Assembly (NCBI GenBank): GCA_038848695.1
Contig: JAWCNL010000008.1
Location: 26,353-90,352 of the forward strand
Direction of reading: 5' to 3'
Source of the DNA: Candidatus Bathyarchaeia archaeon
GTDB taxonomy: Archaea > Thermoproteota > Bathyarchaeia > Bathyarchaeales > Bathycorpusculaceae
Length of the DNA stretch: 64,000 nucleotides
Both the position numbers and the translations under genes were made by a program. Of the stretch, positions 42,060-63,597 are shown one piece after another. Under the pieces are notes generated by a model. That model was not told the origin of the DNA, did no database searches, and saw only the letters and a program-made list of their open reading frames with translations. The first letter of the stretch is position 1, and each line of letters starts with the position of its first letter.

Positions 42060-43592
42060 ATGAGGACCGCTTTGGAATCAAAAGACAGTACTCTAATAGC
42101 CTACAATATTCTTGAGAAAAAAATTATAAACAATGGTTTTTGTACTTTGTGCGGCGCGTGCGAAGCAGCATGTCCAACTAGCGCGCTGCACATAATGGGC
42201 GAGAAAGTTAATCGTTTGTATGACTGCTCAAAAGACATAGACTTGTGCCCAATATGCTACGAGATCTGCCCTCATTCCGAAGCCCTCCTGTTGAGAAGCT
42301 TAAAATTCGTCTCAGACGCGCCAATCAAGCACGAGGCTATAGGGTATTACAGAAAAATGGTTCTTGCGCAAGCAGTTGATCCGAAATTACGCCAACAAAG
42401 CCGCGGCGGCGCCGTTGTCACTGCACTACTAAATTATGGCATTGAAAGTAAAATCTTTGATAGCGCCATAGTTTCTCAGAGTGAACCTGAGAATCCATCT
42501 AAACCGAAACCGTCAGTGGCATTAGTGCCCGATGATATACTTTCAGCGGTGGGTAGCAAGTTTTTTCCTTCCTCGGTTGCGAAGGCCTATGGAAGCGCGG
42601 TGTACAGTCATGGAAAAACCTCCATAGCCTTCGTTGGAGTACCCTGCCATGTGCTTGCGCTTCGCAAAATGGAGGCATGGCAGCACAAAATTATTGATAA
42701 TTTGAAAATAACAATTGGCCTTTTCTGCTTCGGAACCTTTTCATTCAGTTCCATGCTGGACTATATCGAAAGAACTTACAAGATACGTTCCTCCGACATA
42801 AAGCAGATGCATTTATCCTCAAAATTTGTCATCCAGACTGAAACGGGTGAAATACGTATTCCTTTATCTGAAATTGAAAAGCACATCATGCCCAGCTGCC
42901 GCACCTGTATGGATTTCACCTCCGAACTCGCAGACATATCTGTTGGCGGCGCATATCCTCTGAAGGACTGGTCAACCGTTATAATTAGAACTAAAGCGGG
43001 CGAAGACTTCTTCTACAACGTCGTTGAAAACGGAATCATCAGCACATGGGTCATAGAGCAAGAGCCCAAAGTCTTTGAGCGCGTAATGCTGGCGGCAATG
43101 CAAAAGCGGACAGAGGCCCTCAAAAAGGCTATGGAAATGGAGGAAGCTTATGGTTATCTTCCTACGTTGCTGCTTAGAGAAACAGCTGATTTAGCCAAGT
43201 TTAAGGTTGAGGAGATAATGACCAAGAACATCCAGGTAGTGCAACAGGATGTGTCTGTCAGTCAATTCTTGGATTACGTAGCTAAACATCATCACATTGG
43301 TTACCCAGTTGCAAACGAAAAAGGTGAACTTGTCGGCTGGGTTACTATTGAAGAGGCGGCACATGTCGCGAAAAAGAAGCGAGATGAAACCTCTGTCGGC
43401 CAAATAGCACGAAAAAACGTGGTTGTTGCCTATCCCGATGAAACCGCGTTGGATGTTTTCAAAAAGATGAGTGAGCATGAAACCGGGCGCGTTATTGTCC
43501 TTGATAGAGCGGACGCGAAAAAGTTGCTTGGCATAGTAACTAAAGCAGACTTAATGCATGCGCTGGCAAAGCAGCCTGAGAAGCACATTTAG
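42060..43592 (+). CDS. FrhB/FdhB/FpoF-family flavoprotein with an N-terminal ferredoxin-like domain and a C-terminal CBS pair
   Basis: CTLCGACEAACP and CPICYEICP clusters, RGGAVVTALL, FVGVPCHVLALRK, CRTCMDFTSELADISVGG, followed by two CBS repeats (residues from about 385 to 505). Confidence 0.75.
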   Translation: MRTALESKDSTLIAYNILEKKIINNGFCTLCGACEAACPTSALHIMGEKVNRLYDCSKDIDLCPICYEICPHSEALLLRSLKFVSDAPIKHEAIGYYRKMVLAQAVDPKLRQQSRGGAVVTALLNYGIESKIFDSAIVSQSEPENPSKPKPSVALVPDDILSAVGSKFFPSSVAKAYGSAVYSHGKTSIAFVGVPCHVLALRKMEAWQHKIIDNLKITIGLFCFGTFSFSSMLDYIERTYKIRSSDIKQMHLSSKFVIQTETGEIRIPLSEIEKHIMPSCRTCMDFTSELADISVGGAYPLKDWSTVIIRTKAGEDFFYNVVENGIISTWVIEQEPKVFERVMLAAMQKRTEALKKAMEMEEAYGYLPTLLLRETADLAKFKVEEIMTKNIQVVQQDVSVSQFLDYVAKHHHIGYPVANEKGELVGWVTIEEAAHVAKKKRDETSVGQIARKNVVVAYPDETALDVFKKMSEHETGRVIVLDRADAKKLLGIVTKADLMHALAKQPEKHI

Positions 43593-43707
43593 CAAAAAAG
43601 GCCTATTGCAGCAAGCCTCTTAATGCATTACACAGTGATGTAGCATTGAAACAATAAAATTATTAAGTTAATCGGTTTGATATATTTACTGAATTCGGTA
43701 GGTTGTT

Positions 43708-44181
43708 TTGTGCATGGCTGAGTGCAGTGTGGAAACAAAGAAAGAGGGCATCAGCACACTAACTGCTGTAATACTAACCATAGTCGTCGCTCTATCCATT
43801 ATAGCTGCCGTTTTAACTCCGATAAGCAAAGAATTTATGCCAGGTATTGAAGCAATAGTTGACACGTTGCTTAACATAACAACCAACATGATCTACCTGA
43901 TCGGCGGCGGCGTTATAATTTTCGGCGCGGTGCTTGTTACAATACGGTTCGTGCAGTGCAAATTGAAGGATCCTTATAAGCCGACTTGCGTAACCCGTTT
44001 CTTATCGGGCTATTTGACGCTTAGCCTAGAATTTTTTATTGGCGCTGAAATCATAAGAACCGTAGTTACACGAACATATGAGGAATTCTCACTGCTTATT
44101 CTCGTCATATTCAGCAGAGGCCTATTCAGTCTAATCTTGTATTTAGAACGTAGATGGCACGGCACCGTGGAAACAGAATAA
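43708..44181 (+). CDS. DUF1622-like membrane protein
   Basis: LSLEFFIGAEIIRTV motif and several TM helices. The likely start is ATG 43714. Confidence 0.55.
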   Translation: MCMAECSVETKKEGISTLTAVILTIVVALSIIAAVLTPISKEFMPGIEAIVDTLLNITTNMIYLIGGGVIIFGAVLVTIRFVQCKLKDPYKPTCVTRFLSGYLTLSLEFFIGAEIIRTVVTRTYEEFSLLILVIFSRGLFSLILYLERRWHGTVETE

Positions 44182-44215
44182 ACTTGAACTTCCACTGGCG
44201 GGCTTTGCTTTTTTT
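44167..44215 (+). terminator. Hairpin plus T7 run at the end of the DUF1622 gene
   Basis: The gtggaa(44167-44172)/ttccac(44190-44195) inverted repeat spans the stop codon and is followed by TTTTTTT at 44209-44215. Confidence 0.35.
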
Positions 44216-44555
44216 AACGGCTATTTTATGCCGTAACTTCATGGATTATGTAGGGCTTTCTATTGGTCAAACTTTAAATGCTTGGAGTTCCATTCTAAAA
44301 GACTAGCTCTGAGGCCTATGGCTATTACAAATATGGATAAAACTCCTTGCGTTGATAGCGATGGCACGCACTTTCTTTTAGACAAATTTATGCTAATTTC
44401 AGATTATTGCAAACATATGAATCGATTATTAAGCTTTATATATGCGTATGTCGATGAAAACTTGCTTGTAAGTAGCATATGCACAATTAAAGCAAGCATC
44501 ACAAACATAAATGAAAAAGCGCTTGAGGCAAAACAAATGATTTGCTACGCAACCT

Positions 44556-44903
44556 GTGAAGGAGGCAAAGGATACGTTCACTGAATCTATTATTGCCTTT
44601 CTCTTAATTTTAGCGGTTAGCTCGCTTATCTATTTCCTTGGTCGCCGCGCTTCACCTAAATCCGCCCCAACCGACAATGAGCAATCGGAATATGCGTGTG
44701 GAGAAAAAGCGCCTGTTCAGAGGCTTCGAATAAATGTAACGCTGTACAAGTTTCTCATATACTTCGCAATTTTTGACTCTTCAATTTTACTTCTAGCTTT
44801 CGCAGCACTTCTACAAGGAGCAAACGTGCTGCTTCTGATTCTTTACCTCTTTATAACATTTGCAGCGAGCCTAATTCTTCTCGAAGGAGCCAAAGAGCAA
44901 TGA
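44556..44903 (+). CDS. nuoA: NuoA/ND3-like membrane subunit
   Basis: 115 aa with three TM helices and an EYACGEKAP loop (YECG-like). GTG start. First gene of the operon. Confidence 0.7.
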   Translation: MKEAKDTFTESIIAFLLILAVSSLIYFLGRRASPKSAPTDNEQSEYACGEKAPVQRLRINVTLYKFLIYFAIFDSSILLLAFAALLQGANVLLLILYLFITFAASLILLEGAKEQ

Positions 44904-45343
44904 GTAAACTAGCGACTTGGGCACGGCTGAAATCTCCTTGGGTTCTTCACTTCAACTCTGGCGCATGCAATGGCTGCGACATCGAGGTTGTTGCCCTCTT
45001 AACGCCTAGGTATGATGTTGAACGCTTTGGCATTAAACTTGAGCCTTCACCGCGGCATGCTGACGTTTTATTAACCACAGGCGCCGTTACAACCCAGTGT
45101 GCAGAAAGGCTAAAGCGCATCTACGAGCAAATGCCCGCGCCAAAATTCGTTGTAGCAATCGGCGCTTGTGCATGCTCCGGCGGCGTATTTAAGGGAAACT
45201 ACTCTGTAATCGGCGGCGTAGACAAGGTAATTCCTGTAAACGCTTATATCCCTGGGTGCCCGCCGAAACCAGAAGCAATAATCGACGGGGTAGTAAAACT
45301 GCTTAACTCATTGAAAGAGGCGAAGCCAAACGGCAAAAAATAA
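44900..45343 (+). CDS. nuoB: NuoB-like / group 4 [NiFe]-hydrogenase small subunit
   Basis: GACNGCDIEV is the hydrogenase-type CxxC, rather than the CCxxE of complex I. IGACACSGG and PGCPP provide the four Cys for one [4Fe-4S] cluster. Confidence 0.9.
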   Translation: MSKLATWARLKSPWVLHFNSGACNGCDIEVVALLTPRYDVERFGIKLEPSPRHADVLLTTGAVTTQCAERLKRIYEQMPAPKFVVAIGACACSGGVFKGNYSVIGGVDKVIPVNAYIPGCPPKPEAIIDGVVKLLNSLKEAKPNGKK

Positions 45344-45374
45344 GCAAGATCCTCTAACCGTCATTCAAGATAGA

Positions 45375-46916
45375 ATGGGCGAGAGTCTTCAAATTCAGCA
45401 AGGGCAGCTGGGAAAGGCGCTAATCCAAGTTAAAGCAGAGTCTATCCGAGAAATTGTTGGCGCCCTACTGGAAGCCGACGCTGCCGCTTGCATTTCTGCT
45501 CTCACCGGCGTGGATTTGGGCGAAAAAATAGGTTTAATGTATCATCTTCGCACTAGCGATGGTATTGTTACTATTCGAACTGAAGTTTCCAAGGAGCAGC
45601 CGAAACTTGGCACCGTAACTGACCTTATACCGGGAGCAAGTTTCCACGAAAGAGAAGTAGCTGACCTCTTCGGCGTAACCTTTGAGGGCCATCCAAACCC
45701 TGCAAGGCTGGTTCTCCCTGAAAATTGGCCTGAGGGACTTTATCCACTTAGAAAAGACGCTAAAATTGACGAAATTTTAGCTAAAAAGCAGCCCCTTCGG
45801 AATCAACCAGATCCAACGCATGTCCAAAGCGATGGAGAACTTGTTAACATAATTGTGGGTCCTCAGCATCCCGCGCTTTTGGAGCCAGAAAAGTTTTCTA
45901 TTCGCGTAGATGGCGAAATCGTGAAGCAAGTTGAGCCACGCATCGGCTACGTCCATAGAGGCGTGGAAAAAGCCGCTGAGCAGCGAACCTACCTGCAGGA
46001 TGTTTACTTGGTGGAAAGAATTTGCGGTATATGCAACTCTTGCCATGCCGCCTGCTTCGTTGAAGCAGTGGAAAAAATACTTCGCGTTGAAGTGCCGCTT
46101 AGAGCTAAGTATCTGCGCACCATAATTTTGGAGCTTAACAGGCTTCACAGCCATCTACTTGTGTTGGGACATGCGGGGCTTGAAATTGGGTATGAAACGC
46201 TTTTCCAGTATATGTGGCGTGACCGCGAGCCAATAATGGATCTAACTGAGCTGCTTACAGGCAACCGCGTTATCTCTTCAGCAATGACGATAGGCGGCGT
46301 ACGTCGAGACTTGAAAGAAACAGATATTCCTAAGATCAAAGCGGAGTTGGCTGCGCTGAAGAAGAAAATGGACTTTTATAGGCAAATTTTTGAAAATGAA
46401 CCGACGCTGAAGATGCGCACTCAAAAAGTCGGTGTGCTTTCCAAGGAAGATGCGTTGAAACTTTGTGTAGTTGGACCTGTAGCTAGAGCCTCTGGCGTAG
46501 CTACAGATGTGCGGAAAGATGAGCCCTACGAGGCTTACGGAGAAATACCTTTTAATTTAATCACGCGTAAAGAGGGAGACTCATGGGCGCGCCTTATGGT
46601 TCGCGTAGACGAGATAATCGAGAGCATTAACATAATCGAGTACGCGCTGGATCACATGCCCTCAGGGCCTTTCCGAGTCAAAGTGCCGAGAGTTGTGCCT
46701 GCAGGCGAAGCAGTCAACCGCGTGGAAGCGCCCAGAGGCGAACTGTTTTACTACGTTAAAAGTAACGGTTCAGCCTATCCGGAGCGAGTGAAAGTGCGCA
46801 CTCCCACATTCGCTAATATCCCCTCGTTCGTCAAAATTGCGGAAGGCGGCAATATAGCGGATGTACCTGCTAGTTTCGTGAGTTTAGACCCGTGCTTCTC
46901 ATGTACTGACAGGTAG
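45375..46916 (+). CDS. Fused NuoC-NuoD-like protein = group 4 [NiFe]-hydrogenase large subunit
   Basis: N-terminal NuoC-like region of about 130 aa (FHEREVADLFG). L1 motif RICGICNSCH (Cys codons at 46023 and 46032). C-terminal L2 motif DPCFSCTDR (Cys codons at 46893 and 46902). The protein ends at the R, with no cleavable extension. Confidence 0.9.
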   Translation: MGESLQIQQGQLGKALIQVKAESIREIVGALLEADAAACISALTGVDLGEKIGLMYHLRTSDGIVTIRTEVSKEQPKLGTVTDLIPGASFHEREVADLFGVTFEGHPNPARLVLPENWPEGLYPLRKDAKIDEILAKKQPLRNQPDPTHVQSDGELVNIIVGPQHPALLEPEKFSIRVDGEIVKQVEPRIGYVHRGVEKAAEQRTYLQDVYLVERICGICNSCHAACFVEAVEKILRVEVPLRAKYLRTIILELNRLHSHLLVLGHAGLEIGYETLFQYMWRDREPIMDLTELLTGNRVISSAMTIGGVRRDLKETDIPKIKAELAALKKKMDFYRQIFENEPTLKMRTQKVGVLSKEDALKLCVVGPVARASGVATDVRKDEPYEAYGEIPFNLITRKEGDSWARLMVRVDEIIESINIIEYALDHMPSGPFRVKVPRVVPAGEAVNRVEAPRGELFYYVKSNGSAYPERVKVRTPTFANIPSFVKIAEGGNIADVPASFVSLDPCFSCTDR

Positions 46917-46924
46917 GATGAAGA

Positions 46925-47917
46925 ATGGTTTTAGACTGGTGGTTTATTTTCCGCGTGCTTGTCTTCCCCGGCTTCACATTCATAATGCTGGTTACGCTTT
47001 TCTGCGATTGGATCGAAAGAAAGATCGAGGCGCGCATGCAGAATCGCGTTGGACCAGCATTTGCTGGACCAGCTGGTATCCTTCAGCCTTTAGCGGACAT
47101 CATCAAGCTGCTTACAAAAGAGGACATAGTTCCGCGCGGAGCGAAAAAAACTGCCTTTAGACTAGCGCCGATTCTTTCTTTTTCCATCATAGTTTTCGCG
47201 CTATCATTTCTGCCCATCGATGGCGCAGCTGCGATACCTGATTCAAGTTTCGCTGGAGACTTAATCTTTGTTATGGCGCTAATTACCGTAGCCAACTTTT
47301 TCCTTTTCCTTTCAGGCTGGGCTTCCGCAAATCCCTACGGCGACATAGGTGCAACACGTGTTCTGACTCAATTTATCGGCTATGATATTCCACTGTTTCT
47401 TCTTGCACTGGCACCAGCGTTTCTGGCGGGAAGCCTTAGCATTTCCACAATAGCGGCAACTCAGGCCTTGCCATTCGCGCTTTTGGCGCCTTGGGCTTTC
47501 ATATTATTCATAGTCACTCTCCAAGCAGAGCTAGAGAAGGATCCATTCGATATTCCTCACGCTGAAAGCGAAGTGGTAGGCGGAGTAGAAACCGAGTTCT
47601 GCGGAGGCAAACTCGCCTTTCTGCATCTCACCCGCGATGTGCAAATTGTTTTTGGAGCAGCGCTTGTTGTCGAGCTTTTTCTCGGCGGGCCTTACGGGCC
47701 AGTCTTTTTCGGGCCGCCTGCACTTTGGTATACATTATGGTTTATGCTTAAACTGTTGGCAGTCGTGGTAATCACGGAGTACATTACATGCCTATTTGCG
47801 AGGCTGCGTATTGACCAGGTATTAACTGCTAATTGGCGGGTGCTGGTGCCTCTGTCAGTGCTTTCGCTTATCCTAACCATCGCTTTGGCAGCTTGGGTTT
47901 ATCCTATGGTGATGTGA
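46925..47917 (+). CDS. nuoH: NuoH/ND1-like membrane subunit
   Basis: 330 aa, polytopic, with R..AR.Q.R.GP and E.E..GG..TE motifs. Confidence 0.85.
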   Translation: MVLDWWFIFRVLVFPGFTFIMLVTLFCDWIERKIEARMQNRVGPAFAGPAGILQPLADIIKLLTKEDIVPRGAKKTAFRLAPILSFSIIVFALSFLPIDGAAAIPDSSFAGDLIFVMALITVANFFLFLSGWASANPYGDIGATRVLTQFIGYDIPLFLLALAPAFLAGSLSISTIAATQALPFALLAPWAFILFIVTLQAELEKDPFDIPHAESEVVGGVETEFCGGKLAFLHLTRDVQIVFGAALVVELFLGGPYGPVFFGPPALWYTLWFMLKLLAVVVITEYITCLFARLRIDQVLTANWRVLVPLSVLSLILTIALAAWVYPMVM

Positions 47918-47920
47918 GTT

Positions 47921-48310
47921 ATGGTGAAGAAATCCGCTGTGCCACCTATGATGAAGGAACTGTGGGTGCATCTCTTCAAGAAACCCGCCACAAGCAAGTA
48001 TCCGCTTGTGAAAGCTGAAGTTCCCGAAGGCTTCCGCGGCAAGCAAGTGTACGACATTAACCTCTGCATTAGTTGCGGCTTATGCGCCAGAGACTGCCCT
48101 GCAAAAGCCATCGAAATGGTTGAGTTTGAGGGGAAACGGCGACCTCTGTTCCATCTTGACCTTTGTATATTCTGTTATCAATGCGCTGAAAGTTGCCCCA
48201 GAAATGCGATAAAGAGCTCAAGGTTTTTCGAGTTAGCCACAACAGACAAATCTGCCTTAGTAATAAAACCTGCAGAAAGCCCTCAAAGGAGAGAAGGTGA
48301 ACAGCAATGA
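47921..48310 (+). CDS. nuoI: NuoI-like 2x[4Fe-4S] ferredoxin subunit
   Basis: CISCGLCARDCP and CIFCYQCAESCP. Confidence 0.9.
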   Translation: MVKKSAVPPMMKELWVHLFKKPATSKYPLVKAEVPEGFRGKQVYDINLCISCGLCARDCPAKAIEMVEFEGKRRPLFHLDLCIFCYQCAESCPRNAIKSSRFFELATTDKSALVIKPAESPQRREGEQQ

Positions 48311-48765
48311 TTTTGGAGATTATATCAGTTGGACTTGTAATATCCGCCTGCTTAGCAATTTTTCTCGATGAAGCAGTCTACTCCGTTTTCGCCTTAACAG
48401 GCACATTCATGTTAACAGCACTGTTATACGCGATAAGCGGTGCGCTTTACGCAGCAGTTTTCCAGTTCGCGATGGGTGTTGGAACATTGGCTATTCTATT
48501 CCTCTCAGGAGAAATGCTGAGTAAAAAGCCGCCCAAGATTCCAAAGAAAAGCTTGTTCTCGCTGATAATCGCAGGCTTGCTCTTATCATTGCCTATGCTC
48601 TTCCTATCAGTTTCCGCTCCAATAAGTCATTCTTCCGTATTCTCTTTTGAAGAGGCCTTATGGAGTTTAAGGGCAGGTGATGTGGTTCTGCAAGGCTTAG
48701 TCGTGTTGACTGTGACTGTAGGCATAGCCATTTTTCTGCATGAAAAGAAGAAAGGTGAAAAATGA
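48307..48765 (+). CDS. nuoJ: NuoJ/ND6-like membrane subunit
   Basis: 152 aa, hydrophobic, positioned between nuoI and nuoK. The start overlaps the nuoI stop. Confidence 0.7.
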   Translation: MILEIISVGLVISACLAIFLDEAVYSVFALTGTFMLTALLYAISGALYAAVFQFAMGVGTLAILFLSGEMLSKKPPKIPKKSLFSLIIAGLLLSLPMLFLSVSAPISHSSVFSFEEALWSLRAGDVVLQGLVVLTVTVGIAIFLHEKKKGEK

Positions 48766-49080
48766 ATGGACTTTGTTATCTTGTCATTAATCATGCTTGC
48801 TGTGAGCATTTACGGCTTGCTTACAAAACGTGACTTGCTAAAAGTGTTCGTATCAGTGGAGCTAATCGCCACGGCGGCAACACTAAATTTTGTGATGCTA
48901 ACGCCCTCAAGCAGCAGCTTAGGCCAAGCATTTCTGGTTTTAGCTTTCGCCACAGACACCGCCGTAGGCGCACTAGTATTAGCTTTACTTCTAATCGCCA
49001 GGAAGAAATATGGCACAAGCGACATTAGCGAAATAATGCGCATAGAACAAAACAAAAAGGAAGGAGAGCGTGAAGCGTAA
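48766..49080 (+). CDS. nuoK: NuoK/ND4L-like membrane subunit
   Basis: 104 aa with three TM helices and a conserved membrane Glu (SVELIATAA). Confidence 0.75.
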   Translation: MDFVILSLIMLAVSIYGLLTKRDLLKVFVSVELIATAATLNFVMLTPSSSSLGQAFLVLAFATDTAVGALVLALLLIARKKYGTSDISEIMRIEQNKKEGEREA

Positions 49081-51036
49081 TTGCTGCAGGATACTTCTTC
49101 GTGGCTTGTTTGGCTGCTTCCCCTGATTTCCAGCCTATTTGTGCCCTTAACCGCACGCTTAGGTGAAAAAGCGAGAAACTACTTCGTAGTTTTAATAAGC
49201 TTGGTTACTGCCGCATTAGCCTTCTCGCTGGTTCCATCCGTCTATTTTGGCGACGCTGAACCCTTAGGCTCATCCACAGCTTGGATTCCCTCTTCAGGCA
49301 TAGCCGCCGGCGTTTTCATCGACCCGCTGAGCGTGCTGTTCGCGGTTCTAGTCGCCTTCTTCGGAGTGATAATCGCTGTCTACTCCTTGGGCTACATGAA
49401 AGGCGAAGAAGGACTAACACGCTACTACTTCTTCCTCCTGCTCTTCATAGGCTCAATGATTGGCCTCGTGGTCTCCGACAATTTCCTCCAAATGTTCATC
49501 TTCTGGGAGATGGTGGGTCTCTGCTCCTACTCACTGATCTCCTTTTGGTATAAGCGCCCAGAATCTGTCCGCGCAGGCGCCAAAGTTTTCCTCATGACAC
49601 GTATAGGCGACGTAAGCTTACTAGGCGCTATTGGGCTTCTTTACGGAAGCTTGGGCTCATTTTCCTTCAGATACGCCATCGCCAACATAGGAACAATACC
49701 AACGCCTACCCTAACCGCAATAGCGTTTCTAACACTTGGCGGCGCCATCGCCAAATCTGCGCAGCTTCCGCTGCATACATGGCTATACAGCGCCATGGAA
49801 GCGCCTACATCCGTTAGCGCGTTGCTGCATGCCGCAACCATGGTTAAGGCAGGCATCTATTTAATCGCAAGATTAATCCTCATTTTTGGGCCATTAGCTT
49901 TTTCCATCCCCATGTGGCTGCCCACGGTCGCTTGGGTCGGCGTCTTAACCGCTTTTATCGGCGCAACACTGGCTTTATACACTCCCGACATCAAAGGCGT
50001 GTTAGCCTACTCAACCATCAGCCAATTAGGTTTCATGATGGCAGCGCTGGGCACAGTCTCTTCGCACTCAGAGCTGGGCTTGTTCGCCAGCCTATTCCAC
50101 ATGATGAGCCACGCTTTCTTCGAGGGCTTAGGCTTCCTATTGGCAGGAGGCATAATCCACGCGCTTGGAACACGTGATATGAGGCTGATGGGCGGTTTGA
50201 GAAAAGCCATGCCGATAACTTTTGGGTTGAGCCTAATAATGGTTTTAACAACCAGCGGACTGCCGCCTTTCGCTGCCTTCTTCAGCAAAGGGCTCATCAT
50301 AACAAGCTTGACAGAAGCCGGCAACATCTGGCAGGTTATTTTAATCTACGCCACCACAGCTCTCACGTTTACTTACAGTCTAAGGTTCATGACGCTTGTC
50401 TTCATGGGCAAGGAGTCCGAACACTTGAAGACTCTTCATGTGCATGAAGCGCCGAAAATAATGCTGTTTCCCGCGGCTGTGCTTGCTGTTCTATGTGTTG
50501 TTTGGGGCTTCTTTGAGCCTTGGCTGACAAGCTTTATGCACGTGGAAGCTGAAGCGAGTCTGCTGGGTGCCTTTCTCAGTTTGGAAACCCCAATTTTCTT
50601 CGCCATTCTCGCTCCCGCTGGCTTAATTATATATCTAACTTACTACAAGAATTCAGAGATTATGAGTAAATTCCGAAGCAGCTCAAATCCTCTAAAATCT
50701 GTCCTGAACCATGGCTACTTCTTCGACGACCTTTACGAGAAGATTACCGCTAAAGCTATTGTACGCTTCTCAAGCGGCGTACATTACGTCGAAACATTCA
50801 TTTTCAACAAATTACCGCAGATAGTTGCGTGGTCAGTTATTGTTTTGGCGAATGCGGTTCATCGGTACCTTGATGTTTTGGTGGATAACTTGCTTACACT
50901 TATTGCGCTTCGTACATTGCGTGGTGCCGAGCACATGAGGAAGGTGCCTGCGTCGTCTCTGCAGCATTATATCGCTGCTGCGTTGCTTGGTTTTATATTA
51001 ATTATAATATTGATAATAGCTACCATAGGAGTATAG
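49081..51036 (+). CDS. nuoL: NuoL/ND5-like antiporter-type subunit
   Basis: 651 aa with WEMVGLCSY, SAQLPLHTWL and a long C-terminal extension. TTG start. Confidence 0.9.
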   Translation: MLQDTSSWLVWLLPLISSLFVPLTARLGEKARNYFVVLISLVTAALAFSLVPSVYFGDAEPLGSSTAWIPSSGIAAGVFIDPLSVLFAVLVAFFGVIIAVYSLGYMKGEEGLTRYYFFLLLFIGSMIGLVVSDNFLQMFIFWEMVGLCSYSLISFWYKRPESVRAGAKVFLMTRIGDVSLLGAIGLLYGSLGSFSFRYAIANIGTIPTPTLTAIAFLTLGGAIAKSAQLPLHTWLYSAMEAPTSVSALLHAATMVKAGIYLIARLILIFGPLAFSIPMWLPTVAWVGVLTAFIGATLALYTPDIKGVLAYSTISQLGFMMAALGTVSSHSELGLFASLFHMMSHAFFEGLGFLLAGGIIHALGTRDMRLMGGLRKAMPITFGLSLIMVLTTSGLPPFAAFFSKGLIITSLTEAGNIWQVILIYATTALTFTYSLRFMTLVFMGKESEHLKTLHVHEAPKIMLFPAAVLAVLCVVWGFFEPWLTSFMHVEAEASLLGAFLSLETPIFFAILAPAGLIIYLTYYKNSEIMSKFRSSSNPLKSVLNHGYFFDDLYEKITAKAIVRFSSGVHYVETFIFNKLPQIVAWSVIVLANAVHRYLDVLVDNLLTLIALRTLRGAEHMRKVPASSLQHYIAAALLGFILIIILIIATIGV

Positions 51037-51040
51037 AAAA

Positions 51041-52552
51041 ATGCCATACACGCTGTTATCAGTTTTCCTTATACCAACTTTGAGTGTTCCTTTTGTTTAT
51101 TTGAGCGGCAAGAAGTCTCCACGTTTAGCCGCAGTGCTTGTTGCCCTGATAGCACTCGCCAACATCGTCTTGATTCTATCTACTGTTCCCACCGTGCTTG
51201 ATAGTCCAAATCACGAGTACATCGAATCCTATTATTGGATTCCAGTGTTAGAGTCCGAATTCACCCTTTTCGTTGACGGCATCAGCATATCCTTAGCAGT
51301 TATCACGTTGGTTCTCATAATAGCCGCCGCGCTTTTCTCTATAAACTATATGGAAGGAAAAAAGAACTTAGCGGTTTATTACGCGCTTTTGACGCTACTT
51401 TCTGTCGGCCTTGTAGGCGTCTTCATAACTTCTAATCTTCTGCTTTTCTATTTCTGCTGGGAACTAATGCTGGTTCCGGCGTATTTCATAATTGGCGGCT
51501 GGGGCTACAGAGACCCATATCAAGCTGCATTCAAATTCTTCGTGTTCACACATGCAGGTGCAGTCTTTGTCGTACTAGGCATAGGCGCCATCTACATGAT
51601 AACAGGCGCCACGGACATGTTCCAAGCGCAGGCCGCGCTAATGGCGGCTAGTCCTGACCTTGTGCGGTGGATACTGCTTGCTTTAACTGCCGGTTTTGCA
51701 GTTAAAATGGCCGTTGTCCCAGTGCACATGTGGCTGCCCGATGCCCACTCTGAGGCGCCGTCGCCTATGTCGGCGCTTCTAAGCGGTGTTATAATCAGCG
51801 CGGGTGCCTACGCTATTCTGCGTTTGTCGTTGGCAACTGTCTTCCCAGCGGTTATGGGCACCACCTTCGGCAGCGATTTCCTGCATGGCTTGGCAATTTT
51901 CGGCGTGGTTTCGGCCTTTTTCGGCTCGCTTATCGCCTTGGTTGAAACCGACATAAAACGGATAATTGCTTACTCAAGCATTGCGCACATGGGCTACGTG
52001 CTGTTTGGACTTTCGCTCTTTCCTTCCTCTTCCACCGCTGGAACAGTGGCAATCACAACGGCTATAACTGGAACAGTGCTACACCTTGTAAATCACGCAG
52101 TAAGCAAAGGGCTGCTCTTCCTTTCCGCCGGCGCCATCATGCATCAAACAGAAACAAGAGACATACGTGAAATGGGCGGGCTTGCAGGCAAAATGCCCTT
52201 CACCGCCACCGCTTCAACCACTGCCGCGTTAAGCATTGCTGGAACGCCTCCATTCGCATGCTTCATAAGCGAATTTCTAATGTTCGTAGGCGCCTTTGAA
52301 GTGATAAACGCTGATGGCTTCTATCTTCTGCCAACAGCCTTCATGCTCATAGCCACAGTCATTTCACTTGCTTACTCGCTAAGGTATCTGTCCCATGTCT
52401 TCCTCGGACAAACAAAAAATGAAGCCAAAAAGATTCTAGATGTTCCCGGCTACATGAAGCTGGCAATGGCTATTCTGGTGATTCTTGTGATTGCTCTCGG
52501 CATTTGGCCCACATTCTTCATAAACCTGATTAACACCGTGCAATTCGTTTGA
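51041..52552 (+). CDS. nuoM: NuoM/ND4-like antiporter-type subunit
   Basis: 503 aa with FYFCWELMLVP, VPVHMWLPDAHSEAP and YSSIAHMGY. Confidence 0.9.
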   Translation: MPYTLLSVFLIPTLSVPFVYLSGKKSPRLAAVLVALIALANIVLILSTVPTVLDSPNHEYIESYYWIPVLESEFTLFVDGISISLAVITLVLIIAAALFSINYMEGKKNLAVYYALLTLLSVGLVGVFITSNLLLFYFCWELMLVPAYFIIGGWGYRDPYQAAFKFFVFTHAGAVFVVLGIGAIYMITGATDMFQAQAALMAASPDLVRWILLALTAGFAVKMAVVPVHMWLPDAHSEAPSPMSALLSGVIISAGAYAILRLSLATVFPAVMGTTFGSDFLHGLAIFGVVSAFFGSLIALVETDIKRIIAYSSIAHMGYVLFGLSLFPSSSTAGTVAITTAITGTVLHLVNHAVSKGLLFLSAGAIMHQTETRDIREMGGLAGKMPFTATASTTAALSIAGTPPFACFISEFLMFVGAFEVINADGFYLLPTAFMLIATVISLAYSLRYLSHVFLGQTKNEAKKILDVPGYMKLAMAILVILVIALGIWPTFFINLINTVQFV

Positions 52553-54057
52553 GGCGTACCTTTATGGTTGAGCTGTATGATGTTGTTTTGCCAATAATCA
52601 GCTTGATTACTTTCGCGTTACTCACAATCCCAGTTTTCAAGATTATCCGTAAAAGTGCGCACAAAACTGCTTGGATTCTAGCTTGGTTCTCAACCGCCTT
52701 CATCTTCTCAGGGGTTGCTGTGGCTAATTTAACAGCCAAATATTACAGTCTACCCTCGCCACAACCCTTCCTCAACATCACGCTAACAGACACGCCGTTG
52801 GCTGTGCTCTCAAGCGCATTCATGATAGATGCCATATCAGTTTACATGGCAATAATATTTACCTCCGTCAGCGCCATTATCATGCTCTACAGCATCTTCT
52901 ACCTAAACTCAGACGAGCGCCCAGCTGAAAGATACTATGCAATTATGCTAATGCTTACTGCTGCTTTAATAGGCACAGCGTTTTCCGGCGACCTCCTAAC
53001 ACTCTTCATCTTCTGGGAAGCCGCTGCCGCAGGCTCAGGTTTCCTAATGATTTATAGAAAAACGCCTGAATCCATGAATTCCACACTAAAATATCTCGTA
53101 ATGATAATCATCGCTTCAGCATTCATCGTTTTCGGGCTTTCGCTTGTTTACAGTTTAACAGGCACATTGAATTTCTGGGCTGTCCGCGAAGCGCTAATCG
53201 CTTTAAGCGACAAGCACCTGCTTGTGCTTGCCTTCATTTTTATAGCAACAGGCTACGCTATTGAATCCGCGATTGTGCCTTTCCACTTTTGGCTGCCCGA
53301 CGCTTATGCATCAGCCCCGTCATCGTCAGCGGCTTTCCTTTCAGCTTTAATCGATCAAGGCAGCTACTATGTTCTGATACGTGTTCTCGTGTTCATTCTA
53401 ACCCCGCCAGAAGTGCTCAATTGGACGTTTATGCTGGCCGTGATGGCTGCGTTAACCATGGTTGTAGGCAATTTGTTCGCGCTAATTCAGAACGACGTAA
53501 AACGCTTGATAGCCAACATCTGCGTGGCCGATGTCGGCTACAACTTAATAGGCATAACCAGCGTAACAGCGCTCGGCTTGACAGGCAACCTCTATTTCTT
53601 TCTAATTGGCGGAATCACTACAGCGTTATCTTTCATGGTAGTAGGCATAGCTAACCATTACGGTTTCAAAACACTAGAAGATTTTTCTGGCTTAGGCAGA
53701 AAAATGCCTCTTCTAAGCTTAGCCCTGCTAATAGCTTGCCTCTCTTTCGCAGGAGTCCCGCCTTTCGGCGGCTTCATGGCTAAATATTTAGTTTTCACCG
53801 CCGCAATAGAAGCGAACCTGAGCTGGTTAGCAGTCATAGGCGTCTTAACAAGCGTTCTCCAAGTAGCATACTTACTGCGACTCGTGAATTACATGTACGC
53901 GAGAAATCCCAAAGACGAACGCATAATCAAAGAACCAAAAAAGCTACTTATTCCCATCTTCGTTCTTGCAGCTGCCATAATACTCCTCGGACTATATCCA
54001 CAAGTAGTCTTCAACTTCATCGATCCCGTGATAAACCAGCTCCAGTTCATACGTTGA
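52549..54057 (+). CDS. nuoN: NuoN/ND2-like antiporter-type subunit
   Basis: 502 aa with FIFWEAAAA and VPFHFWLPDAYASAP. Last gene of the operon. Confidence 0.85.
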   Translation: MRRTFMVELYDVVLPIISLITFALLTIPVFKIIRKSAHKTAWILAWFSTAFIFSGVAVANLTAKYYSLPSPQPFLNITLTDTPLAVLSSAFMIDAISVYMAIIFTSVSAIIMLYSIFYLNSDERPAERYYAIMLMLTAALIGTAFSGDLLTLFIFWEAAAAGSGFLMIYRKTPESMNSTLKYLVMIIIASAFIVFGLSLVYSLTGTLNFWAVREALIALSDKHLLVLAFIFIATGYAIESAIVPFHFWLPDAYASAPSSSAAFLSALIDQGSYYVLIRVLVFILTPPEVLNWTFMLAVMAALTMVVGNLFALIQNDVKRLIANICVADVGYNLIGITSVTALGLTGNLYFFLIGGITTALSFMVVGIANHYGFKTLEDFSGLGRKMPLLSLALLIACLSFAGVPPFGGFMAKYLVFTAAIEANLSWLAVIGVLTSVLQVAYLLRLVNYMYARNPKDERIIKEPKKLLIPIFVLAAAIILLGLYPQVVFNFIDPVINQLQFIR

Positions 54058-54435: not shown

Positions 54436-55236
54436 GTGCCTGTTGAGATTGGTTTAGAGATGTATGCGGAGAAGCCTGTGGTTTTGCCGTTGTTTACAGG
54501 ATATGTGGCGCGTGGCTTGTTGTTGCATGCTGTTAGGCGGATAGATCCTGCCACGTCTGAGCTGCTGCATGAGTTGAATGTGCGTAAACCTTACAGTGTA
54601 ACGCCTATGCGGTTCAAGAGTAAGCAACGTGCTGAAAACGGTTATGAGTTGGATCCGCACGCCCCTTGCTTTGTGAGTTTTAGGTTTTTGCGGGATGAAT
54701 ATAGCATGTTTATTCTTAATTACTTTCAGAAAGAGAGTAGTGTGTTGGTTTTTGACACGGTTTTTCGGGTTGCTTCTTTAAGCGTAAATTGTAAGAGTTA
54801 CGTGGATTTGGAGAATGAAGCGCAAGCGGCTGACAGGTTTAGGCTGGTGTTTAGGACGCCTACTTACTTTGCGAGTTTGGGAAGCAGTTTTCGTTGGATG
54901 TTTCCTGATGCTGTTAAGGTGTTTGCGGGTTTAATGCGTGTTTGGAACCTGTTCAGTGACAGTAGACGATTTGGCAAAGAAGAGTACTTAGCCTATAAAG
55001 AATGGCTGGAGAAGAATGTGGGCGTGTGCGAGTATGATTTGCATACGCGGTTAGCCGTTATGAGAAAAAAGAAAGCCACAGGATTTGTTGGGTGGGTCAC
55101 GTATGAAATGAAAGATACAGAAAGCGAATGGAATAGGATAACGTGTATGTTGGCACGATATGCGGAGTACTCGAATGTGGGTGGGAACCGCACATGCGGA
55201 TTTGGCATAGTGCGTATGTTACCTTACAAAACGTGA
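54436..55236 (+). CDS. cas6: Cas6 CRISPR RNA endoribonuclease
   Basis: 266 aa with a C-terminal glycine-rich loop (GGNRTCGFGIV) and an N-terminal ferredoxin-like fold pattern. First gene of the cas cluster. GTG start. Confidence 0.8.
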   Translation: MPVEIGLEMYAEKPVVLPLFTGYVARGLLLHAVRRIDPATSELLHELNVRKPYSVTPMRFKSKQRAENGYELDPHAPCFVSFRFLRDEYSMFILNYFQKESSVLVFDTVFRVASLSVNCKSYVDLENEAQAADRFRLVFRTPTYFASLGSSFRWMFPDAVKVFAGLMRVWNLFSDSRRFGKEEYLAYKEWLEKNVGVCEYDLHTRLAVMRKKKATGFVGWVTYEMKDTESEWNRITCMLARYAEYSNVGGNRTCGFGIVRMLPYKT

Positions 55237-55400
55237 AAAGCAATTGCTGATGTTGGTGTATAGGTTTTCTCTATTTATACGGTAAATTTACAGTTAGCTG
55301 AGCTCTTTAATGATAGTGGAAACCGTATCGAAGAACCTGAAAAGTGATAATAAGAATTAAAAACAGTAGTCGCAAATAACCAAAGAGTAGGGATTGGTGA

Positions 55401-57650
55401 TTGAATAGATTTGCTGATAGTTTCTCGGTAGAAGAAATATTTAAGGTAGCACTGGAAGGAGGACAACCGTATCCGCATCAATTAGAAACTGTAAAAAGCA
55501 TCGCTGATGGAAAATCGGTTGTTTTGCGTGCTCCTTGTGGTTCAGGAAAAACAGAAGCTTGCTATATATCTTTGTTAGCCATGAGCAAAGCAGAGGATTT
55601 TCCATTTAGACTGATCTACTCATTGCCTACAAGGGCTTTAGTTGAAGACGTATGTTATCGTATCAACAGAGGCATCAAGAAGTTGGGCTCTCCTTTGACA
55701 GTTTCACCTCAACATGGTGCAAATTCCATGGATCCTTTTTTAAGAAGCGAAATTGTTGTGGCAACAATAGATCAAACAGTGGGCGCGTATTGTTGCACTC
55801 CGCTGAGTCTTCCAGTTCACCAAGGGAATATTCCTGCGGGCGCTGTGGTTTCTTCATTTTTGTGCTTTGATGAGGTTCATGTTTACGATCACCGTTTAGG
55901 TTTGCAAAGTGCCATCGTTCTAATTGAGCATGTAGTGAATTTAGGCTTACCTTTCATTGTTATGTCCGCTACGTTGCCTGATTCCTTTATTGACTGGTTT
56001 GAAAATAACGAAAAATTTGCTGATAAAGTAAAGATCGTCAAGGCAAGCGACGATGATGTGCCAAAACGTCATAATCGACAAGTCACATTGCATTGGCGAA
56101 GCAAGATTCTTGAGGCAAAAGACATTATAAATTCTGCCAAATCGTTTAATCGAATAATAGTGGCGTGCAATACTGTTGATCGCGCACAAGCGCTTTTCCA
56201 ATGCATCAAAAAAGAATTAAGTTTGGCGCATTTTAAAGTTTTTTTGCTGCATTCCCGATTTCTGGAAGACGATAGAGCACGTATAGAACAAATGATGAAA
56301 GCTTCTATAGAAAAGCAAGGTGAAAAAACATGTGTTGTCACAACGCAAGTATGTGAAGTTGGGTTGGACATTTCATGTGATTTGTTGTTGACGGAATTGG
56401 CGCCTCCGGATGCGCTTGTTCAAAGAATTGGGAGATGTGCCCGTAAAGGTGGTCAAGGCAGAGTTGAAGTATTTGATGTTGAATGCTCCGCACCTTATGA
56501 AGAAGGCGAACTAAAAAATTGCAGAGATTACATATGCAGCAACTTAGATGGGAAAAAAATCGGTTGGAATGAGGAAATTGCCTTTGTTAATGAACTTTTG
56601 AGTAATGAATTTGAAAAAATTTTGCAAGATGAAAATTTAAGACGTAATTTGCGGTTTGCTCTCGGAAACTCTGCTTTCAAAGGTGATAGACGCGCAGTAG
56701 AACAGACTGTACGGGAAGTGTTTAGTGCAAATTTGACAATACATGAAGATCCATCTAAATTATCTTATAAAGAAATGTTGAATATGCCTTGGATTAATGT
56801 TCATGTGGGCGTTCTTAAGAAATTTTTGCCAAAAATATGGCATATTGAATTTGAGCATAACGAGTATGGAAAGTATGAATTACATGTAAAAAAGGCTAAT
56901 AAATTATATCCTTATGAATTCTACGTTATACACCCAGAGTGTGCGGAATACTCTCCTGAATTAGGTCTTATCCTCGGTTCAAAAGGTGAAAATCTCAAAA
57001 CCCAAACTCACGACCCTCTTCAAAACATGACATATGAATATCCTCAGGAATCCTGGGAGCAGCACGTAGAAAATTGTTTGAAAGCCTTTGATAAAATAAA
57101 AAGAGATGAGTTGCACTCTTTAAGGTTACTAGCGAAAGTGCTTAACAATGATTTGCGTAAAACTGAAGGATTAATTGCTCTGTGTCTAGCAATTCATGAT
57201 CTTGGTAAATTGAATATTGAATGGCAGCGAGAAATAGGAGTATATGGAAAAGATTCTGTCCCACTAGCACATATTCCTGAAAAGCCAAAAACGATACCTC
57301 ACGCCGCCGTTGCTGCCTATGCTGTACGGAAACTCTTTTATGAACTGATAGGAAACCAGCACTTTACCACTGCATTTGAACTTGCCGTAGCTCATCATCA
57401 TCACACTCGCGCTAGCGAAGTCCCAAGATATAACTTAGGATGGAAAAGCATCTATGAAAGAGTTTTGCTAAAAGTAATTAAGAAATATGACCTTCCGACA
57501 GAAATTTCTAAAAACATTATCACTGAAATTCCGTATGAAACTAAGCTTGATATACCTTTCCCTGATATTGAACGCAAAAAGCAATATGCAATATACTGTA
57601 TCGCATCTAGACTTACGAGAATGTGTGACCGGGCGTCTTTTGCTGTTTGA
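55401..57650 (+). CDS. cas3: Cas3 with an N-terminal SF2 helicase and a C-terminal HD nuclease (fused Cas3'-Cas3'' order)
   Basis: Walker A APCGSGKTEA, DExH-like FDEVH, motif VI QRIGRCARKG, then HD-domain motifs QHVENC, AIHDLGK, PHAAVAA and AVAHHHH in the last 190 aa or so. TTG start. Confidence 0.9.
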   Translation: MNRFADSFSVEEIFKVALEGGQPYPHQLETVKSIADGKSVVLRAPCGSGKTEACYISLLAMSKAEDFPFRLIYSLPTRALVEDVCYRINRGIKKLGSPLTVSPQHGANSMDPFLRSEIVVATIDQTVGAYCCTPLSLPVHQGNIPAGAVVSSFLCFDEVHVYDHRLGLQSAIVLIEHVVNLGLPFIVMSATLPDSFIDWFENNEKFADKVKIVKASDDDVPKRHNRQVTLHWRSKILEAKDIINSAKSFNRIIVACNTVDRAQALFQCIKKELSLAHFKVFLLHSRFLEDDRARIEQMMKASIEKQGEKTCVVTTQVCEVGLDISCDLLLTELAPPDALVQRIGRCARKGGQGRVEVFDVECSAPYEEGELKNCRDYICSNLDGKKIGWNEEIAFVNELLSNEFEKILQDENLRRNLRFALGNSAFKGDRRAVEQTVREVFSANLTIHEDPSKLSYKEMLNMPWINVHVGVLKKFLPKIWHIEFEHNEYGKYELHVKKANKLYPYEFYVIHPECAEYSPELGLILGSKGENLKTQTHDPLQNMTYEYPQESWEQHVENCLKAFDKIKRDELHSLRLLAKVLNNDLRKTEGLIALCLAIHDLGKLNIEWQREIGVYGKDSVPLAHIPEKPKTIPHAAVAAYAVRKLFYELIGNQHFTTAFELAVAHHHHTRASEVPRYNLGWKSIYERVLLKVIKKYDLPTEISKNIITEIPYETKLDIPFPDIERKKQYAIYCIASRLTRMCDRASFAV

Positions 57651-57696
57651 TCCACAGCACAAATTTTATAAAAAAAGTAGTATAACTAATGGTTGT

Positions 57697-58740
57697 ATGT
57701 GTATAACGAAATTCATTGTAAACAAGTCTTCTTTTGAAATGCTCGATACTTTTAGGGCTTACGGTCTGGCGTTTCTTGTTAGCGGGTTAAGTGAAGAAGA
57801 CACGGAGGTAACAATTAAAGATCAAGGATATGCGTATTTTATAGAAGTAAATGGATCCATACCAAATGAACCTGACCCATCATTATTTGTGGATAGAAAA
57901 GAATGGAACTTGATCTTTAGGACATACAAAGAACGAAAGGATTCTAAGAAAGACCCGCCAAAAAAAGAGGTAGAAAAAATTGTTACTGAAAAGTTTCCCC
58001 AGATTTTATCAATTCACCAAGATCCAACTTTTATGCCTGAGATTAGTGGAGACATAAAAGATGGCAAAACACTCTACCAAACCTTAGATATAGCATGTGC
58101 AAAAGGTTATCGTGAATCAAAAAGAGATGTCTATCATGATGGAACGCAGCTTGAGATGGATCGTTATTCATGGGCAGTTACGTGCATTGGAGCAGCTTGG
58201 GCAAGCGTTTGGAAAGAAACAGAATCGTTTATTCTTTTTATGACTCCTAATCCGTCGAGCATTCTTTTAGGTTCTCATAGGGCTATTCAAAAAGATTTAG
58301 ATGAAAGAATATGCCCGCTGTCGCCTAACACTGCACTTGTTCATTATGCCATAAAAATTGCTTTACTTATAGCTAAAAAGCGACTATCTCATACCATCCG
58401 ATATGACAGCGTAATTTTTAATATCATGCAGAAAACAGGACAGCAACCTAAACCTGCCGGTGGGGGAAGATACGGACTCGATATACTCGAAAAACTTGCG
58501 AGCACTCCTGCTGGGATAGCCGCTTTGAGTCGTATTGAAAAAATGTTTCCTCTGTCGTCTAAGGTTAATGGAGTAAAGCAGTCTGTTACGTTCGCCTTAA
58601 CAAATTTCTTGCTGCGCCCAACTTTAACGAATTTTCGAACTTTTGAAAGCTTATATATTCGTGGTCAAGTTAAAGGAGAATTATACCCTTGGGACAAGAA
58701 TCAATTAGGGGAGCTGTTAAAGTATGTCGAAGCTGCATGA
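57697..58740 (+). CDS. Putative Cascade large subunit (Cas8a-like), highly divergent
   Basis: Called only from its position between cas3 and a small-subunit-like gene and from its size (about 347 aa from ATG 57697; the ORF is open from 57487, overlapping cas3). No recognisable motifs. Confidence 0.45.
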   Translation: MCITKFIVNKSSFEMLDTFRAYGLAFLVSGLSEEDTEVTIKDQGYAYFIEVNGSIPNEPDPSLFVDRKEWNLIFRTYKERKDSKKDPPKKEVEKIVTEKFPQILSIHQDPTFMPEISGDIKDGKTLYQTLDIACAKGYRESKRDVYHDGTQLEMDRYSWAVTCIGAAWASVWKETESFILFMTPNPSSILLGSHRAIQKDLDERICPLSPNTALVHYAIKIALLIAKKRLSHTIRYDSVIFNIMQKTGQQPKPAGGGRYGLDILEKLASTPAGIAALSRIEKMFPLSSKVNGVKQSVTFALTNFLLRPTLTNFRTFESLYIRGQVKGELYPWDKNQLGELLKYVEAA

Positions 58741-59985: not shown

Positions 59986-59988
59986 CCA

Positions 59989-60699: not shown

Positions 60700-60704
60700 A
60701 ATGC

Positions 60705-62208: not shown

Positions 62209-62242
62209 AAGATGTCAAATGCATACATAAACCTTCTGCGAC

Positions 62243-62533: not shown

Positions 62534-62539
62534 ATGCCT

Positions 62540-63574: not shown

Positions 63575-63597
63575 CAAAATCGCCCCTGCAGAGGCGC

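Follow-up and report, generated by a model that had tools for sequence, protein, structure and literature searches.

The DNA analysed here is a 64-kb stretch (the window) from a Candidatus Bathyarchaeia archaeon (assembly GCA_038848695.1, contig JAWCNL010000008.1). At 44556-54057, on the + strand, it contains ten co-directional open reading frames (ORFs), which overlap or are separated by gaps of at most 31 nt. Family assignments (Pfam at gathering thresholds, together with NCBIfam) relate these ten genes to the 11 core subunits of respiratory complex I in the order A-B-CD(fused)-H-I-J-K-L-M-N. This is the gene order claimed in a first-pass annotation, which had read the cluster as a complex-I-ordered operon with the catalytic subunits of a [NiFe]-hydrogenase. 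The genes are given hfo names below, after a published hydrogenase considered further on.

The colinear cluster opens, in the window as in 56/56 loci compared, with hfoA (44556..44903), encoding a NuoA/FpoA homologue of 115 aa with three transmembrane (TM) helices predicted from hydropathy (PF00507, 28.9 bits for a cutoff of 23.3). It is followed by hfoB (44900..45343), for the NuoB or hydrogenase small subunit (147 aa; PF01058, 121 bits), and by hfoCD (45375..46916), for a fused NuoC-NuoD or [NiFe] large subunit of 513 aa with matches to PF00329, PF00346 and PF00374. Downstream are hfoH (46925..47917), encoding a NuoH/ND1 homologue (330 aa; PF00146, 288 bits), and hfoI (47921..48310), encoding a NuoI-type 2x[4Fe-4S] ferredoxin-like subunit of 129 aa, with Fer4 families, NuoI and HycF-like NCBIfam matches and the motif CxxCxxCxxxCP twice, at residues 49 and 82. 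The NuoJ homologue is encoded by hfoJ (48307..48765; 152 aa; PF00499, 35.9 bits for a cutoff of 33.2), which is colinear in every complete locus, and the NuoK homologue by hfoK (48766..49080; 104 aa; PF00420, 51.9 bits). The cluster ends with three genes for antiporter-like subunits, namely hfoL (49081..51036; NuoL/FpoL-type, 651 aa; NCBIfam NuoL, 458 bits), hfoM (51041..52552; NuoM-type, 503 aa; TIGR01972, 345 bits) and hfoN (52549..54057; NuoN-type, 502 aa; NCBIfam NuoN, 245 bits). All three products match Proton_antipo_M, and their best NCBIfam ranks are NuoL, NuoM and NuoN, respectively.

Homologous clusters were collected by scanning GTDB genomes, one for each species, which gave 111 relatives, with 80 loci kept; their CD proteins are 60-94% identical to that of the window. 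Gene order was counted in the loci with enough DNA (n=56), the 3′ motif of hfoCD in the homologues with a complete 3′ end (n=75), and residue conservation in L, M and N in 54-58 orthologues per subunit. The order A-B-CD-H-I-J-K-L-M-N is colinear in all 56 sufficiently long loci. The canonical arrangement is present at 75 loci and the same cluster in at least 75 GTDB species; 78 of the 80 loci belong to Bathyarchaeia/Bathyarchaeota genomes assembled from metagenomes (MAGs). The closest CD homologues are from Bathyarchaeia MAGs, with up to 92-94% identity, and the species genomes nearest to the window are JZ-2 and Kamchatka MAGs (93-94% CD identity). Substitutions in hfoB are concentrated in third codon positions (478:121:2613 for the three positions), indicating that the genes of the cluster are under purifying selection.

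The catalytic subunits combine several hydrogenase features. In HfoCD, PF00374 (NiFeSe_Hases) matches residues 195-262, over the N-terminal part of the family. Both Ni-Fe ligand pairs lie where they had been reported, with the L1 motif RICGICNSCH at residues 215-224 (Cys217, Cys220) and the L2 motif DPCFSCTDR at residues 505-513 (Cys507, Cys510); they conform to the group 4 patterns C[GS][ILV]C[AGNS]xxH and [DE][PL]Cx[AGST]Cx[DE][RL], respectively. Alignment with structurally known homologues had been fixed beforehand as the decisive test of this assignment, and it brings the cysteines into the ligand columns. ERICGICNSCH of HfoCD stands over DRVCGICGFAH of Escherichia coli HycE (7z0s_E) and ERMCGICSFSH of Pyrococcus furiosus MbhL (6cfw_L), and DPCFSCTDR stands over DPCYSCTDR and DPCLSCTDR of the same two proteins, whereas Thermus thermophilus Nqo4 has PRMDYLHSFAH and DPVMGDVDR in these columns, with no Cys. 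L1 (RxCGxCxxxH) is kept in 80/80 homologues. DPCFSCTDR followed by a stop is found in 75/75; in the window the stop codon comes directly after R513, so that the large subunit does end at the final Arg, with no C-terminal extension.

Differences from complex I extend to the columns of the quinone site. The HfoCD stretch GPQHPALLEPEKF aligns with GPIHPGLEEPEKF of MbhL, and the equivalent in Nqo4 is GPQHPSTHGVLRL, which we take to carry the quinone-site His38; THG of Nqo4 aligns with LLE of HfoCD. Beside the first L1 Cys, HfoCD has Gly and Nqo4 has Tyr, the latter presumably the quinone-site Tyr87. In a sequence search of the PDB, evaluated with the printed pairwise alignments, HfoCD scores best against HycE (311 bits), followed by MbhL (278), Aquifex NuoCD2 (258) and Nqo4 (247); its relationships are drawn from this ranked similarity and from a published tree (PMC7886697). 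HfoB has the hydrogenase-type motif CNGCDIE at residues 23-29, as annotated, and its motifs are conserved in the orthologues; candidate ligands of its [4Fe-4S] cluster are Cys23, Cys26, Cys90 or Cys92, and Cys120. Its best PDB match is MbhJ (6cfw_J, 179 bits), with nsg(a/s)CNGCDIE common to both proteins, while NdhK and the NDH-1 and complex I homologues have a tandem CC ('AC--C', two residues shorter) at the position of the CxxC in HfoB. Collectively, the ligand columns, the best scores against HycE and MbhL and the CxxC of HfoB indicate a hydrogenase-type catalytic head, with all the sequence criteria applied in agreement.

Retention of the ligand cysteines is not confined to the canonical cluster. 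Among the representatives of 50%-identity clusters, the nearest (P0241, 59%) shares the order of the ten genes but carries a C-terminal extension of 30 residues, and those at 43-46% identity have different gene arrangements. The nearest representatives are Cys-retaining and hydrogenase-type, and the first that matches neither ligand motif occurs at rank 17, with 39% identity. Five Bathyarchaeia loci (L036, L061, L067, L072 and L073) have a second, rearranged paralogous group 4 hydrogenase cluster, in which B-CD-I is followed by H and A, encoded on the other strand, and these by K and antiporter-like genes; L1 and L2 are retained in its CD, which shows 60-65% identity to that of the window. In a complete genome of 1.83 Mb (L086; CP094288.1, 9580-21629), a Cys-retaining B-CD-I-H-x-K-L-M hydrogenase cluster is directly followed by a separate nuoA-B-C-D-H-I-J cluster, the D of which has no NiFeSe_Hases Pfam match, so that the two forms adjoin.

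The membrane arm, on the other hand, resembles that of complex I. HfoH scores higher in the PDB search with NuoH (167 bits) and Nqo8 (148) than with MbhM (94), and its acidic TM5-6 loop is kept (conserved HAESEVVGGVETEF compared with PEAEQELVGGYHTEY in Nqo8). HfoK has membrane-embedded Glu32 and Asp64 in its helices. In HfoL, a non-membrane stretch of ∼100 residues follows the last core helices and leads to a terminal TM helix at 624-651, as judged from hydropathy; this C-terminal layout is, at the level of predicted topology, that of the NuoL lateral helix. With the HfoH scores, the lateral stretch of HfoL and the presence of NuoA and NuoJ, the arm is classed as complex-I-type from sequence. 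The proposal of the first-pass annotation that a hydrogenase head sits on a full complex-I-type arm is thus borne out, with CD and B matching HycE, MbhL and MbhJ best and HfoH matching NuoH and Nqo8 best.

Within this arm, the charged residues of the antiporter-like subunits depart from the canonical pattern. The key residues of HfoL are E143, K225, H250, K256, E348 and K403, conserved in 57-58 of 58 orthologues; the non-canonical Glu348 replaces the TM11 Lys of NdhF and MrpA ('HAyFKa' and 'HAtFKg'). Those of HfoM are E141, K222, S253, H352, K356 and E411, with Ser253 at the position of E. coli NuoM Lys265 and an extra TM11 Lys at 356. Those of HfoN are E157, E239, D269 and K412, with E239 and D269 kept in 54/54 orthologues. 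Glu239 is found at the TM7 Lys of MbhH and Mycobacterium smegmatis NuoN, a position where MbsH likewise has Glu (E219, PMC8165549). Asp269 stands at the TM8 Lys as aligned for MbhH and M. smegmatis NuoN; in the alignment with MbsH the TM8 Lys falls one column later, over Gln270, which still leaves HfoN with no Lys. Each of the notable departures in the three subunits is conserved throughout its set of orthologues (54-58 of 54-58).

A complex with these properties has been described before. Loh, Hervé & Brune (2021, PMC7886697) reported in Bathyarchaeia an 11-subunit, Fpo-ordered, CD-fused complex retaining L1 and L2, which they named Hfo and assigned to HydDB group 4g, next to subgroup 4g-6; their Supplementary Table S2 lists hfoA, hfoB, hfoCD, hfoH, hfoI and so on, and nearly identical clusters were found in Ca. 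Methanomethylicus and Pyrodictium delaneyi. Khomyakova et al. (2023, PMC10477458) reported this cluster, L1 and L2 included, from the cultivated Bathyarchaeum tardum. The window cluster shares with the published Hfo its occurrence in Bathyarchaeia, the same eleven subunits in the same order, the C-D fusion, the retained L1 and L2, the lack of NuoEFG or FpoFO genes in the cluster and the evolutionary reading. Compared through the published description, it differs in nothing essential; the lineage there is termite-gut Bathy-6, while here it is probably a geothermal or sediment lineage of Bathyarchaeia. The view in the first-pass annotation that no described group 4 hydrogenase has such a subunit set and order was therefore mistaken, and its claim of novelty falls with it, since a subgroup with the same 11-subunit synteny and ligands was already defined in the literature (PMC7886697). 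As to the bearing of the cluster on the transition from hydrogenase to complex I, the inference itself is shared, but it had already been drawn by Loh et al., who argued that Hfo links energy-converting hydrogenases to complex I more closely than Mbh does (PMC7886697).

Other relatives are set apart by either their head or their arm. The Fpo-like complexes of Methanomassiliicoccales and Methanothrix and the Fpo of Methanosarcina have the same subunit set and order; within their clusters, as within the ten genes here, no module for F420 or NADH input is encoded. L1 and L2 are no longer conserved in their FpoD (PMC7886697), whereas HfoCD keeps the four cysteines and HfoB is of the CxxC type; these complexes reduce methanophenazine or an unidentified acceptor (PMC7886697). 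Mbh of P. furiosus (group 4d, 6CFW) has a homologous catalytic module, as seen in the scores of MbhL (278 bits, with matching L1 and L2) and MbhJ (179 bits), and is ferredoxin-dependent and ion-translocating, as predicted for the window complex. It differs in having one antiporter-like subunit (MbhH), a Mrp-type Na+ module (MbhA-C, F) and another gene order (PMC7886697, PMC8165549), in contrast with the three antiporter-like subunits, NuoA, NuoJ and complex-I-type NuoH of the window. No Mrp-type small-subunit families were found in or beside the cluster with Pfam and NCBIfam.

The Hyc/Hyf formate hydrogenlyase of E. coli (groups 4a and 4b; 7Z0S) also has a fused NuoC-NuoD-type large subunit, and HycE is the best PDB match of HfoCD. 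HycE has a C-terminal extension, its chain running past the aligned R549 to residue 581, while HfoCD ends at the L2 Arg. Formate hydrogenlyase has no NuoA or NuoJ, its genes are ordered differently, and it binds formate dehydrogenase. With complex I (Nuo/Nqo) the cluster shares the core order A-B-C-D-H-I-J-K-L-M-N, the NuoH TM5-6 loop, the NuoL lateral helix and the charged axis of L, M and N. It differs from it in lacking NuoEFG, in a Ni-Fe site in place of the quinone site, in a CxxC rather than CC in B, and in the replacement of several canonical lysines in HfoM and HfoN.

From these comparisons, the product of the operon is very probably an energy-converting [NiFe]-hydrogenase of the Hfo type (HydDB group 4g) in this Bathyarchaeia archaeon. 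Electrons would pass from reduced ferredoxin to the two [4Fe-4S] clusters of HfoI and then to the single [4Fe-4S] cluster of HfoB. At the Ni-Fe site held by HfoCD Cys217/220/507/510, protons would be reduced to H2, or the reverse reaction would take place. The redox step would be coupled to ion translocation by the full complex-I-type membrane arm, along a path through HfoH/A/J/K (equivalents of the complex-I 'E-channel'); HfoL, M and N would form the arm, joined to one another by the lateral helix of HfoL. Physiology would set the direction: either H2 is evolved and an ion gradient built up during fermentation, or H2 reduces ferredoxin at the expense of the gradient, to supply the archaeal Wood-Ljungdahl pathway, as proposed by Loh et al. 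(PMC7886697). In this scheme, we infer the ferredoxin partner, the ion pumping, the direction and the stoichiometry.

Several points weigh against the assignment. According to Loh et al. (PMC7886697), biochemical characterisation was lacking for all of group 4g, and full-text literature searches found no later biochemical or structural work on Hfo. No hyp maturation genes were found in Pfam scans of the larger ORFs of the window, as the first-pass annotation had remarked. As judged from standard potentials, the driving force from ferredoxin to protons would be far below that from NADH to quinone, yet the arm has three antiporter-like subunits. The lysine replacements in L, M and N also count here: canonical lysines are missing in HfoM (S253) and HfoN (E239, D269), and a Glu stands in HfoL, so pumping may differ from that of complex I in stoichiometry or ion specificity. 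Finally, the NCBI name of the protein is NADH-quinone oxidoreductase subunit C, and Qi et al. (2021) list the clusters of hot-spring Bathyarchaeia as 'fpo-like complexes', a label matched in several metagenome papers.

Such names would suit a respiratory complex, Fpo- or Nuo-like, in which ferredoxin is oxidised and a membrane carrier or heterodisulfide reduced, the cysteines being an ancestral relic with no hydrogenase activity. The full complex-I arm (NuoA, NuoJ, complex-I-type NuoH and the NuoL lateral helix) is compatible with this view, as is the best NCBIfam match of HfoCD, which is NuoD (376.6 bits, just above the cutoff of 360). A relic, however, would be expected to decay, and the four ligand cysteines with the entire L1 and L2 are invariant in 75-80 homologues diverged to 60% identity. 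The hydrogenase-type CxxC of HfoB points the same way, as do the Leu and Gly of HfoCD in the columns of what we take to be the quinone-site His and Tyr of Nqo4. Furthermore, Loh et al. detected no methanophenazine biosynthesis genes in Hfo-bearing Bathy-6 MAGs (PMC7886697). A respiratory function with relic cysteines is accordingly regarded as highly improbable, and the Hfo-type hydrogenase is retained.

The conserved non-canonical residues of L, M and N were not found described in the published accounts of Hfo consulted, and are put forward as hypotheses for its characterisation. In addition to the eleven published subunits, the Hfo locus may contain conserved parts that affect function or expression, namely accessory modules, a re-tuned arm and a gating leader; as a whole, this idea is given a low probability. 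For the arm, it is tempting to propose that the re-tuned L, M and N residues may give a lower ion-to-electron ratio or accommodate another ion, which would fit the small ferredoxin-to-H+ driving force. Candidates for the other two parts come from the DNA upstream of hfoA.

The operon is preceded by an AT-rich spacer of ∼370 nt and conserved length (44182-44584 region), which separates hfoA from the gene of a DUF1622 protein. After the stop of the latter come a T-run, a TATA-like box TTTAAAT (44273-44279), the motif AGCTC(G/T)GRG ∼25 nt later, containing a Shine-Dalgarno-like (SD-like) GAGG (44305-44314), and an ATG at 44318. An alignment of 54 spacers shows the promoter-like and SD-like blocks to be conserved, and the segment 44273..44320 (+ strand) is probably the operon promoter with a translation start. 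From this ATG runs a leader ORF of 88 codons (44318..44584, + strand), which overlaps the start of hfoA by 29 nt and is not annotated in the NCBI record. Searches with Rfam in E-value mode over 43590-44600 found nothing in the conserved spacer, and a scan with bacterial promoter and terminator models gave counts near shuffle expectation, these models being uninformative for an archaeon.

The leader frame is kept open, but its peptide (about 80 codons in general) is not conserved. Among the 45 loci with the motif and the ATG, the leader frame is stop-free up to hfoA in 36, and the other frames in 0 and 1; mean stops in the region are 0.36 in the leader frame against 4.9 and 7.4 in the other two, and in shuffled sequence the frame lacks stops in 0.7% of cases. 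Between related pairs, substitutions are spread evenly over the codon positions (740:760:724), unlike those of the neighbouring genes, with 88:25:328 in DUF1622 and the third-position excess given above for hfoB. A normal small protein gene is rejected on account of this even distribution. The sole conserved block in the leader, CTTAAATATGTTCAT, is conserved at third positions too, and its constraint is therefore probably at the DNA or RNA level. Translation of the leader thus appears to be conserved and its peptide not; in the simplest reading of these patterns, it may be a translated leader that brings ribosomes to hfoA. Such a leader ORF may act via translation rather than through its peptide and gate hfoA by translational coupling. 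An open but unconserved leader frame was not found described in the published accounts of Hfo consulted and is offered as a hypothesis.

The DUF1622 membrane protein (155 aa; PF07784; 43714..44181, + strand) is a conserved upstream neighbour, encoded on the same strand directly upstream of the operon in 53/69 loci. The T-run after its stop suggests that it is probably a separate transcript. An identical DUF1622 protein is encoded on contig JAVZCA010000012.1 of GCA_038874615.1 and carries the NCBI label Candidatus Bathyarchaeia. Its close homologues, where the source is named, are all from Bathyarchaeia/Bathyarchaeota; the homologue search gave no functional clue among them, and the protein could be an accessory subunit. 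Further upstream lies the gene of an FrhB/FpoF-like Fe-S flavoprotein of 510 aa (42060..43592, + strand; PF04422, PF04432, Fer4 and CBS), with an N-terminal 2x[4Fe-4S] part and a C-terminal CBS pair. Its NCBIfam scores (FrhB, 199 and 173 bits; FpoF, 107 and 101 bits) are all below the curated cutoffs. A gene of this kind occurs near the operon in 23/66 loci, 19 times on the same strand within 4.5 kb upstream of hfoCD, three times upstream on the opposite strand and once directly after hfoN (L018, where it starts near 13929). Genes further upstream (HAD and orf204) are kept only in the closest relatives. As regards an input module, the locus has no NuoEFG, and the FrhB/FpoF-like gene, two genes upstream of the operon and below the family cutoffs, is found in ∼1/3 of related loci. 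Loh et al. (2021, PMC7886697) and Qi et al. (2021) state that fpoF is absent, and an FrhB/FpoF-like neighbour is mentioned by neither in the text consulted.

This flavoprotein invites a second alternative, an F420-linked variant in which the CBS protein either docks on the complex, in the manner of FpoF on Fpo, or functions alongside it. Were it true, H2 and ferredoxin would be connected to the F420 pool, providing F420H2 for the methylene-tetrahydromethanopterin (methylene-H4MPT) reductase. The layout of the protein, with its N-terminal 2x[4Fe-4S] part preceding an FrhB core and an NCBIfam FpoF alignment over residues 21-324, is FpoF-like, and the gene recurs beside the operon in three arrangements, whereas HAD and orf204 do not persist beyond the closest relatives. 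The source of F420H2 has also been called unclear, and an orphan FrhB was noted in TB2 MAGs (PMC7886697). On the other side, the gene is absent from the neighbourhood in ∼2/3 of the loci, and in the window DUF1622, the T-run and an AT-rich spacer with its own promoter-like element lie between it and the operon; the NCBIfam scores fall far short of the cutoffs for FrhB and for FpoF alike, and docking is putative. Electron transfer from H2 to F420 is carried out by Frh with no need of energy coupling, which is a further argument against this alternative. It is considered quite unlikely, and the Hfo-type hydrogenase, with ferredoxin as the predicted partner, is again preferred. Nevertheless, the FpoF/FrhB-like CBS-regulated flavoprotein and DUF1622 may be accessory modules that tie the hydrogenase to the F420 pool. 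The recurrence of these two neighbours was not found described in the published accounts of Hfo consulted, and their roles are hypotheses.

Immediately downstream of hfoN, type I CRISPR-Cas genes extend over 54436-63628 of the window. They comprise cas6 (54436-55236), cas3 (55401-57650), cas7/Csa2 (59023-59985), cas4 (60705-61412, - strand) and cas1 (62540-63628, - strand), and two ORFs with no family match lie between them (57487-58740 and 59989-60699). Elsewhere the window has archaeal MCM, ribosomal protein and glycolytic genes. Rfam at gathering thresholds reports only two tRNAs in the whole window; a 119-nt Rfam tRNA match at 7807-7925, not called by ARAGORN, is presumably an intron-containing archaeal tRNA, which identifies the window as archaeal. 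A 694-aa radical-SAM/SPASM protein is encoded at 13563-15647; its radical-SAM domain starts only at residue 353, and its N-terminal half has no Pfam match.

The enzyme type encoded at 44556-54057 has been known since 2021 and is still uncharacterised; it is not a discovery of this analysis. Hfo is the closest known match in gene order between an energy-converting hydrogenase and complex I, a point also made in 2021. The value of the present results is confirmatory, in that the cluster is widespread (at least 75 Bathyarchaeia species genomes) and strongly constrained, while being commonly mis-annotated as NADH-quinone oxidoreductase or as 'fpo-like'. Beyond this, the residues of L, M and N, the FpoF-like and DUF1622 neighbours and the leader frame provide concrete hypotheses for the study of Hfo in the now-cultivable Bathyarchaeum.

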